A DNA stretch of 64,000 nucleotides, from positions 34,992 to 98,991 of the forward strand of contig JBBILD010000013.1 in assembly GCA_037445065.1 (NCBI GenBank), written 5' to 3'. Position 1 is the stretch's first letter, and each line of letters opens with the position of its first letter. Source of the stretch: Myxococcales bacterium. Its GTDB lineage: Bacteria; Desulfobacterota; Binatia; HRBIN30. Below, in pieces: positions 25,301 through 28,300 of the stretch. Made by a program: the position numbers.

Positions 25301-28300
25301 GAAGGCGGCGTATGCGGTCGAGACGCTCAGTGAACCGGTGGCCGACCTGCTCGAACGGGGTGGCGAACGCGCGGTGGAGGCCATCCCTGGGGTGGGCAAG
25401 AGCATTGCCGAAAAAATCGTTACGCTGGTGCGTAGCGGACGGCTCCCGTACTACGAGGAGTTGCACGCCAAGGTTCCGGTGGATCTGGAAGGGCTCAGCG
25501 CCATCGAGGGGCTGGGGCCCAAAAACATCAAGGTGCTGTACGAAAAGCTCGGCATCCGCACCGTGGACGAACTGGAACGCGCGGCGCGCGAAGGGCGGAT
25601 CCGCACGCTGCCCCACTTTGGCGAGAAAAGCGAGCAAAAGATCCTGCGCGGAATCGAGTTCCTCAAGCGCAGTCAAGGCCGCTTTCTGCTCGGCGCTGTG
25701 CTGCCCTTCGTGCGCGAAATCGAGCGGCGGCTCCGCGAGATTCGCGGCGTGCAGCGGGTGGCGATCGCAGGCTCCATCCGCCGCTGCAAAGAAACGGTCG
25801 GCGACGCGGACATCTTGGTGGTGGCCGAAGATGCGGACCGAGTAATGGACTTTTTCGTGTCCATGCCCGAGGTCGAGTACGTGCACGGCAAGGGGCACAC
25901 GAAGTCGAGCGTCAAGCTGCATATGGGAATGGATGTGGACTTGCGGGTGGTCGAAGAGGACAGCTTCGGAGCAGCCCTCAACTACTTTACCGGCAGTAAG
26001 GCCCACAACGTGGCCCTGCGCCGCATCGCTCAAGACAAGGGGCTCAAACTCAACGAGTACGGCTTGTTTCGCGGAGACAAGGCGATCGCTGGGCGGACGG
26101 AAGAGGAGGTGTACGCGGCGCTGGGTCTCGAATTCATTCCGCCCGAGTTGCGGGAAGACACCGGCGAGATCGAAGCGGCGCTCGAACACCGGCTGCCCAA
26201 GCTGGTCGCCTACGATGCCGTGCGAGGCGATTTGCAAGTGCAGACCTCTTGGTCCGACGGCGCGCACAGCATCGAGGAGATGGTCGCCGAGGCGCGTCGG
26301 CTCGGGCGCGAGTACATCGCCATTACCGACCACACCAAAGCCCTCGCCATGGTGGGGCTCGACTCCGCGCAGCTCCGCAAACAAATGGCCGAGATCGACC
26401 GCATCAACGCCAAACTCAGCGGCTTCCGCGTTCTCAAGGGCGCCGAGGTGAACATCAATCGCGACGGAACGCTCGACATTGACGACGACACCTTGTCCCA
26501 ACTCGACGTGGTCGGCATCGCCGTGCACTCCTACTTCCATTTGCCGAAGGAGGAACAAACGCGGCGCATCATCCGCGCGATGGAAAACCCCCATGCGGAC
26601 ATTTTGTTCCATCCAACCGGAAGGGCGCTCTTAAAGCGGGAGCCGTACGAGGTAGATCTCGACGCCATTTTCGCTGCCGCCAAGCGTACGGGCACCGCTC
26701 TCGAAGTGGATGGTTACCCGGAGCGTTTGGACCTGCGCGACGAGCACGTGCGCCGCGCCATCGAGGCAGGGGTCAAGCTCGTCATTGACACCGACGCGCA
26801 CAGCACCCACCACCTCGACTACTTGTACTTCGGAATCGCAACTGCGCGCCGGGGTTGGGCCACCGCTGCCGATGTTCTGAACACCCTGCCGGTGGAGGAG
26901 TTTCTCGCCCAGCTCAAAGACGGCCGCACAGGCGCGCACCGCACCCAGCCAACCCGCGGGCGCCGCAAACAGCGCTAGCCAAAAGCCAGCCACTCGTGTA
27001 AGGGCTCACCAATGTCGCGGGTGTGCGCTCTGGCTGGGGATACCAAGGTCGAAACGCCGGAAGGCCCAATGGCGGTGCGCAGTGTGGCCGGCAAGCTGAT
27101 CCCTGTCTTCAGCCGGGATCCGAACGGACGGGTGCGTTTCCGGCCCATGCGTGATGTGCAAAGCATCGCCTCCGAAGCGCCCCTATACCGCGTCGTTCTC
27201 GACAACGGCCGCTCCTTCCGCGCGGGTGCGGGGCAACGCGTCTTTACGCTCGAAATGAGCCCCGTCGCGATTGCCGAGCTTGCACCCGGCACGGTACTGC
27301 TCTCTGCCTTCCACTACCCTGCCGGTTACCGGTACCTGCGCACAGACGGCCACGAGGAAGTCTCCCTCGGGGGCTGGAAAGTGGTCCAGGTGGAGCCCGC
27401 TGGCAGCGGGGAGTTGTTCACCCTGCGCGTGCCGCCCGAGAACTGCTTCTTCGTGACTGCTGGCGTGCTTTGCCAAAGCGAGGCCTGAGGCAGCACGCAG
27501 CGGGCGGGCCAACCTGCCACATTGTCCAGGACGCGGCTCACCTGCCGCGCGGGCCTGCGAACTCTTGCGCCACCACCCGTGCCAGGCCCGGGAGGTCGGA
27601 CACGATACCGTCCACACCCAACTCCCACAGGCGTTTCATTTCCTCTGCGTCGTTGATCGTCCAGGCGTGCACCTCGAGCTGCCACCGATGGGCCGCAGCA
27701 ACCACTTCAGGACGCACAATCTCGATCGGCCCCACCCGCACCGGTACCTGCAAAGCGATCCCCGGAGGGGTGTAGCCGGACCAGTCATCCGCCTCGACGC
27801 GGCGCAAAAACTCGGCCACGTCCTCCGCCGAGAAACTGGTGATCAACTCTCCCCCGTGCGCCCGAACGTGCTGCAGGATGGGGCCTTTCTCTGCAGCCAA
27901 GATCACTCTGCCGGCGGCATCGAACCGGCGCACCAAGCGGATTACCTCGTCAATCAAGGCTCCGTCGTTTTCCTTGATCTCGACGTTGCAAATGGCCAGC
28001 GGAAAGGTGACCAGCACGGCCTCGAAGGTGGGAACCTTCACGCCATGGCCGCGAAAGGGAAAATCGCGGCCGTCGCGACTGAAGCCGTAGCCCGCATCCA
28101 AACTCTCCACCTGTCGCCACGTGAGATCGCGCACCGCCCCGCTGCCGTCGGTGGTGCGGTCCACCGTATCGTCATGCATCACCACCACCACGCCATCGCG
28201 GGTGCCGTGCACGTCCAATTCGAGAATGTCCGCACCCAACGCCAGCGCGAGCGCAAACGAGGGAAGCGTGTTTTCCGGTGCCAGCCCGGCCGCACCGCGG

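Follow-up and report, generated by a model that had tools for sequence, protein, structure and literature searches.

The window analyzed here, the whole 64,000-nucleotide stretch of contig JBBILD010000013.1 from an uncultured Myxococcales bacterium of the order HRBIN30 (class Binatia), contains a gene whose product is very probably a domesticated, catalytically dead mini-intein, that is, a HINT pseudo-enzyme, the fold of which probably now serves another function. We are inclined, with modest confidence, to accept the fuller statement that this dead mini-intein works as a binding protein without enzymatic activity, has a promoter of its own and takes a partner other than a nucleic acid. The proteins related to it, all from uncultured bacteria, are likely to represent a new branch of the HINT superfamily, stand-alone, nuclease-free, splicing-dead and near-core in nine families, with the fold alone recruited, through newly evolved invariant residues, to bind a partner or to carry out a new reaction in trans. 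The features of the locus are collected in Table 1.

Table 1. Features at the HINT-fold locus; positions are counted from the first nucleotide of the window.
Feature	Position	Strand	Remarks
polX-PHP, upstream neighbor	25104..26978	+	context only; at 6/30 loci (own genome and genus g10)
Promoter-like site TAGCCA-N17-TAAGGG, leaderless-type	26976..27004	+	overlaps polX stop; ends 7 nt before ATG
Stand-alone HINT-fold gene	27012..27488	+	158 aa, with 5 residues N-terminal to intein position 1 and 2 C-terminal to that of the terminal Asn
Cys5, at -1 rather than in the splice-nucleophile position	27024..27026	+	Cys in 33/40 members of the order, 0/24 outside
Ala6, intein position 1	27027..27029	+	Cys in 21/21 embedded inteins and 6/64 family members, all f117
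Family-specific conserved residues, candidate new binding surface	27051..27143	+	E14 63/64, T/S34, R35 60/64, F43 64/64, R44 50/64
Degenerate block B	27225..27236	+	Gly72 at Thr position (Thr 0/64), Gln75 at His position (Gln 42, His 22 of 64)
Short insertion F100-S118, F-x-Y-P-x-G-Y hairpin, at endonuclease insertion site	27309..27365	+	Gly-Tyr (G105-Y106) at same spacing in 61/64
Degenerate blocks F-G	27420..27479	+	Thr137 at block-F Asp position (Asp 2/64); Cys154-Gln155-Ser156 replaces Val-His-Asn
GDPD phosphodiesterase, convergent neighbor	27538..28362	-	context only

The open reading frame is intact from its ATG start to its TGA stop, begins 33 bp past the stop codon of the polX-PHP gene and converges with the GDPD gene. 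As the preliminary description of this locus had stated, the 158-aa query matches no Hint family of Pfam at E≤1; with TIGR01445 it reaches 16.6 bits, below the cut-off of 24.5. Weak matches to PF14890 were obtained at E≤1 in 15 of 35 relatives (best 6.7e-4), and a profile built from 35 relatives picked out PDB entries of DnaE inteins (E 6e-5). Where protein searches returned an annotation for the relatives, it was "hypothetical protein", and an Rfam search of positions 24000-29000 found no match. For residue-level comparison, 64 of the 109 members found were set against a reference set of 21 embedded inteins; 40 of these members belong to the order, and 24 were chosen from five further families. 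Family members are 152-185 aa long, carry an insertion of only about 20 residues and are mildly acidic (median net charge -2, pI 5.7, n=64). Between 2 and 27 residues precede intein position 1 by our start calls, and 0-17 aa follow the terminal intein position, the stop codon falling exactly there in 20 of the 64.

The fold confirms the earlier claim that the whole protein is a complete HINT domain without exteins. With the AlphaFold model (pLDDT 95.8), the top Foldseek match is the Ssp DnaB M86 mini-intein (6frg; E 1.9e-10, TM 0.76), which reproduces the reported likeness to DnaB mini-inteins; NpuDnaB (4o1r) was the best match by VIA (Z 21.0, rmsd 1.9, 135 residues aligned), and each of the 31 chains found at Z≥8 in a wide structural search has the HINT fold. 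Structure and alignment agree on a HINT fold that is all-beta and horseshoe-shaped; its blocks A, B, F and G align with the 21 embedded inteins without large gaps. Both HINT halves lie in one chain, so the protein is not a split intein, and no second Hint frame was found in its own genome. No host protein surrounds the domain as N- and C-exteins. The check for longer fused forms, left undone in the preliminary description, returned one match among longer proteins, a portal protein with an embedded intein (E 1.2e-7), which is weak evidence. Open frames of up to 612 codons upstream of some copies were rejected as exteins, being absent from kin with frames of 157-190 codons and overlapping neighboring genes, and P0025 and P0034, considered as fusions, look like frameshifted copies.

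The N-terminal Cys had been described as retained at the splice position, and here the register has to be corrected by one residue. In structural alignments, model residue 6 (Ala) coincides with residue 1 of Mtu RecA, MchDnaB1, PI-PkoII and PI-PfuI and with Hedgehog residue 258, model residue 5 with residue 0 of Mxe GyrA, and model residue 156 with the last intein residue; Ala6 is also position 1 in an HMM alignment to Ssp DnaE and in the alignment with the 21 embedded inteins. Because these three alignments put Ala6 on intein position 1, Cys5 occupies position -1. Position 1 is Cys in none of the 40 members of the order, and Ser (3/64) and Ala (26/64) also occur there across the family. Residual chemistry at a splice-site Cys, as the earlier reading implied, is therefore unsupported, the Cys being off by one and missing from position -1 in all 24 members from outside the order.

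The embedded inteins have their catalytic residues largely in place (of 21: position-1 Cys 21, block-B Thr 20 and His 21, block-F Asp 17, block-G His 19 and Asn 21). Among the 64 family members, the block-G His and Asn are both absent (0/64 each), the terminal position is Asp in a single protein, followed by Gly, and position 75 is exclusively His or Gln. A further 112 proteins, mostly of the f116 type by sequence, include three with Cys at position 1 and none with a terminal Asn. The reported loss of the block-B His and the terminal His-Asn is correct for the order, where Gln replaces His and His-Asn is missing; the block-B His is kept in 22 of the 64, all from outside the order. The losses form graded states: in family f117, all six members have retained Cys1 together with the block-B His, a combination seen nowhere else (6/64), and have another Cys four residues before Cys1, families f7, f116 and f123 keep only His, and HRBIN30 and f115 keep neither. 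The query has neither the Cys or Ser at position 1 nor the block-B Thr-x-x-His of class 1, and it is without the features common to all classes, namely a terminal Asn, Gln or Asp, a Cys, Ser or Thr at +1 and a C-extein. Its Ala1, like that of the other members with Ala there, comes without the terminal Asn and +1 nucleophile that go with Ala1 in class 2 (no Asn, no +1 Cys), and the WCT triplet of class 3 is absent (position 77 is Phe, Leu or Val; F4 Cys 1/64; G5 Thr 0/64). BIL and Hedgehog Hint domains have Cys1 and the block-B His inside a larger protein, and the domain described here stands alone. Judging from these residues, the family can neither splice nor cleave at its C-terminus by established intein chemistry; N-terminal cleavage is plausible only in f117, in which chemistry may survive.

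Other positions have become conserved. T34 occurs in 56 and T143 in 43 of the 64 members; E14, T34, R35, F43 and R44 are each found in at most 2 of the 21 inteins (at most 3 when T143 is included), and all 112 further proteins have E14, T34, F43, R44, Y106 and T143. The family-specific residues may form a surface patch, or they may simply stabilize the fold. The Y-P-x-G-Y insertion sits where the HNH insert begins in the nearest inteins, three of which open their insert with a comparable P-x-[FY]...G-Y, a feature that the majority of the 21 lack; one natural mini-intein shows nearly identical spacing.

Within the order, the gene was matched in 45 of 52 genomes, with one copy each except in G020, which has an additional contig-end fragment, so that its single-copy status is borne out. 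A wider profile run over 401 genomes of the class matched 120. Strong matches (E≤4e-29) came from 109 genomes in nine families comprising 125 genomes, of which f1-f4 belong to the order and f7, f115, f116, f117 and f123 lie outside it; the gene is accordingly less confined than the preliminary description proposed. The other eleven families of the class gave no strong match (0/276 genomes). Nine of the 11 weak matches lie in frames of 669-1417 codons, which are embedded inteins where examined, and two are short stand-alone proteins in f8. Five genomes have two matches each: in two these are halves on separate contigs, in one the second is a GyrA intein, and two have extra fragments. The listed matches have intact, stop-free frames, and G021 contributes a single genome and a single row (L030), with no claim depending on it alone. 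In a phylum sample, full-length matches occurred solely inside the class (3/401); no relatives were found on viral contigs with two queries, and annotated phages gave just one terminase match, at 27.5% identity. The gene is absent at E≤1 from genus g12 (0/5, genomes 90-100% complete) and genus g3 (0/1), bar one 12-bit chance match, and behind the M16 peptidase gene, the usual site in many relatives, both have other genes and no remnant. This absence indicates a gene that is useful but dispensable.

No neighbor is common to all loci, which upholds the earlier observation of changing gene contexts. M16 peptidase is a neighbor at 10 of 30 loci, and other neighbors are an EF-G paralogue with isocitrate dehydrogenase, dnaA with UDG, ATP synthase with ClpB, EutB with an acyltransferase, acyl-CoA dehydrogenase, DUF72 and SRAP. 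UDG lies directly downstream at all nine f7 loci and at one of two f115 loci; in f7 and f123, dnaA is found within a few genes, and the f8 sister group has recC as its neighbor. Gene order is partly shared between families, as expected if the locus descended with rearrangement.

The arrangement of -35-like and -10-like elements 17 nt apart that precedes the gene recurs just upstream of 18 of 64 members, irrespective of which gene comes first (mean 0.5 and maximum 3 in 500 shuffles; 0 in a control window), although the pattern was derived from these same, partly related sequences and the count is not an independent test. It suggests that the gene may be driven by its own promoter-like site. Arrangements of the TAGCCA-N17-TAAGGG type precede 23 ATGs in the genome, some of them starting long housekeeping-like frames. 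A generic sigma-70 scan returned no promoter, since the final T of the -10 box is missing from these sites. No operator-like motif common to the regions upstream of the 64 members was found; recurrent AT-rich upstream words come from one to three families, are probably the coding end of one upstream gene and were rejected as an operator.

The family is under purifying selection and is inherited with its hosts. Among the 45 closest pairs, dN/dS is 0.07-0.53, and host-family labels change 12 times on the tree (131 alignment columns), where the minimum is 10 and the shuffled mean 56.9. In a 48-row tree, from which six inteins (long branches or near-duplicates) and two mis-cut ones were left out, the family lies on one side of a branch supported at 99/92, and the f8 pair is its sister at 97/92. 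The family has one origin, and its inheritance follows the host families. The best tree splits the order, with the order as one clade not rejected (p-AU 0.30; 0.067 for family f1), and we are unsure of the root that places the order as a basal grade. The f8 sister protein is assigned to Hint by hhalign (probability 96.3, E 1.5e-9) and by the tree, its single-sequence AlphaFold model having a pLDDT of 41.6; together with f117, it would record stages of the change. The nearest inteins reside in portal, RNR, DnaB-like, caspase-like and GyrA hosts, and HNH_3 was found in 11 of the 14 hosts scanned. Since the nearest inteins mostly carry HNH_3 and the hairpin resembles the start of some HNH inserts, origin from an HNH-type intein is likely, though not proven. 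In such a course of events, a class-1 intein of the HNH-endonuclease type would have lost its nuclease, kept the short Gly-Tyr hairpin and, as a mini-intein, been established as a gene of its own in a common ancestor of several lineages of Binatia.

Several known groups share part of this description. Class-1 mini-inteins (NpuDnaB 4o1r, Ssp DnaB M86 6frg, Npu and Ssp DnaE) and HNH_3-type inteins (T4-like portal, RNR, DnaB-like, caspase-like) have the same HINT fold and an insertion at the endonuclease site, whereas the family has no exteins, has lost Cys1 (except in f117), the block-B Thr, the block-F Asp and the block-G His and Asn, and is single-copy and host-inherited rather than patchy. 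The yeast proteins HO and WHO are likewise stand-alone, extein-less and intein-derived, and HO is domesticated and does not splice, according to passages of PMC7282813; the same passages describe both as acting via a retained LAGLIDADG endonuclease and a zinc finger, with motif G lost. Set against that account, the family shares the stand-alone form but has neither nuclease nor zinc finger, keeps the whole block-G strand and conserves the HINT domain itself. Hedgehog Hint and BIL domains (sections of PMC5874633 and PMC7664689) and Vint (PDB 8r2c, by its title) are also non-mobile HINT domains used by the host. As far as those sections go, three HINT subfamilies are recognized, each self-processing (PMC5874633), and Hedgehog and BIL domains sit in larger proteins and cleave or transfer at their ends, whereas the family is a lone domain without the residues concerned. 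Class 2 (Mja KlbA) and class 3 (WCT) inteins, as outlined in part of PMC7664689, resemble most family members in having neither Cys nor Ser at position 1, but the family has no terminal Asn, +1 nucleophile or C-extein, and Trp is not among its top B12 residues. In the portion available of a phage intein survey (bioRxiv 10.1101/2025.01.02.630785), "free-standing" is applied solely to endonucleases. We found no account of this family in the literature searched, which excluded most subscription journals, and the words "intein" and "hint" are absent from the main text of the Binatota genome paper (PMC8262859).

One intein-like Atlas cluster is marked to 33% by PF08517 (AXH). The AXH domain of ataxin-1 and HBP1 is a non-catalytic protein- and RNA-binding module. 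Its presence in that cluster hints that binding is within the reach of a Hint-related fold. AXH domains are eukaryotic and occur in large proteins, unlike this stand-alone bacterial protein; AXH was absent from our structural hits, and no paper pairing "AXH domain" and "intein" was found.

The description of the protein as a domesticated intein with a new cellular job is supported, the job being a putative one, by the dN/dS values, the host-following tree, the presence in 109 of 125 genomes, the lack of another Hint gene in its own genome and the new invariant residues. We picture a small soluble housekeeping protein that would bind a partner without chemistry on its own backbone; the likeliest partner would be a protein, a peptide or else a small ligand. 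Binding would involve T34-R35, F43-R44, T143, E14 and the Y-P-x-G-Y hairpin, and the old active-site pocket with His or Gln at position 75 may take part. An unlikely variant has the protein bind nucleic acid instead, as an accessory of DNA repair or replication, through the leftover HNH hairpin and R35, R44 and K28; the resemblance of the insert to the start of some HNH-type inserts, the conserved Arg and aromatic residues and the neighbors polX, UDG, dnaA, DUF72, SRAP and recC would suit it. Those DNA-related contexts, however, are not independent of one another and were noticed post hoc, equally many contexts are unrelated to DNA (M16 peptidase, EF-G/IDH, ATP synthase/ClpB, EutB/acyltransferase, acyl-CoA dehydrogenase), most members carry a net negative charge, and no common operator-like motif accompanies them. 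We find it harder still to credit a re-wired enzyme or redox switch, in which Cys(-1), Cys145 or Cys154 would form a disulfide or act as nucleophile, or E14, R35, His/Gln75, Y106 and T143 would form a new active site in trans. No Cys is family-wide: position -1 has it in 33 and position 154 in 37 of the 64 members, yet both in only 15, and nine members have none at -1, 1, 145 or 154. A Cys(-1)/Cys154 disulfide was rejected, as the two do not covary. The block-B Thr is missing throughout, and N-terminal cleavage would free merely 2-27 residues; pointing the other way are the Cys1, block-B His and C-x3-C of f117, the restriction of position 75 to His or Gln and the invariant polar residues.

The two remaining alternatives keep the protein within intein biology. 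As a decoy or helper, it would assist resident inteins in trans or capture the split inteins of phages, a role that its complete HINT fold and the rarity of embedded inteins (TIGR01445) in the order (1/52 genomes) and f116 (0/20) might suggest, and that we regard as improbable. Its own genome has no other Hint domain, families f7 (9/25) and f117 (5/19) hold TIGR01445 matches beside the gene, and f8 (0/94) and f118 (0/27) are intein-free without any strong match to the family; the short TIGR01443 matched five of 52 genomes of the order, two of them marginally, and no link to resident inteins was found. Stable, single-copy housekeeping contexts also differ from defense islands, and a full HINT chain would offer no slot for a split half. 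We give least credence to a selfish or neutral relic, either a decaying intein or an unusual active one of class 2, class 3 or BIL type. Its clean absence from g12 and g3 and the class-2-like Ala at position 1 speak for such a relic, but endonuclease, exteins, terminal Asn and WCT triplet are all missing, dN/dS is far below 1, frames are intact and the tree follows the hosts; homing is impossible because there is no endonuclease.

Reviews, in the parts consulted, present HINT domains as self-processing devices (inteins, Hedgehog, BIL). The family described here is a case in which the HINT fold has been selected for after its known chemistry has gone, in more than 100 genomes, whereas HO works via its nuclease instead. 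It provides a marker family for part of the class Binatia, and its graded states make it testable what else the HINT fold does and how a protein parasite turns into a housekeeping gene.

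Within the main family of stand-alone HINT-fold proteins, the members from f117, a Binatia family outside order HRBIN30, retain both Cys at the intein N-terminal splice position (Cys1) and the block-B His, carry Asp or Ser at the block-B Thr position, and end exactly at the position of the terminal Asn. They also share a conserved C-x3-C motif whose last Cys is Cys1. If any N-cleavage survives, or if a redox trap exists, f117 proteins would be the best candidates. Members from f116, likewise outside the order, have Arg at position 1, an N-terminal arm rich in Lys and Pro, and a longer insertion; the metagenomic hits of one protein search are mostly of this type, judged by sequence.

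A second, divergent stand-alone Hint-like family of about 190 aa was found in 5 of 121 genomes of the Binatia family f8, and in the tree it is sister to the main family (97/92). In its proteins Gln takes the place of the block-B His, some copies have Cys1, and the C-terminus is W-x-x-G-x-G-G-G-I-G-I. At the two loci examined, recC is the divergently oriented neighbor.

Coordinates of two ORFs in the window and of HINT-related loci elsewhere
Feature	Location	Strand	Remark
f116 members, main family	L086-L090, L114		
f117 members, main family	L078-L082, L116		
f8 Hint-like gene	L099:3965-4537	+	second family
f8 Hint-like gene	L100:2810-3388	+	second family
f8 Hint-like family	L118-L122		
GyrA mini-intein	L098:1854-3152	+	
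ORF, 1215 aa	window 17394-21041	-	presumably SecA-like, by sequence
ORF	window 22069-23523	-	C-x3-C-x2-C motif

The genome with the GyrA mini-intein also carries a main-family gene. Caspase-like (Peptidase_C14) proteins P0083 and P0085 host HNH-type inteins, an unusual host type. Two unnamed viral clusters in the ESM Atlas (164 and 199 aa; feature score 0.92-0.93) are possibly further stand-alone Hint proteins from phages.

In the window, the SecA-like ORF seems to have two long helical insertions, one following the GTDILLGGN motif and the other close to the N-terminus. The other ORF, a few genes away from polX, resembles by its motif a radical SAM protein of the spore-photoproduct-lyase type.

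The window's own genome contains 23 sites with a promoter-like motif, its -10 box without the last T, lying 5-9 nt upstream of ATGs, several of which open long frames; this arrangement suggests leaderless mRNAs in the lineage.
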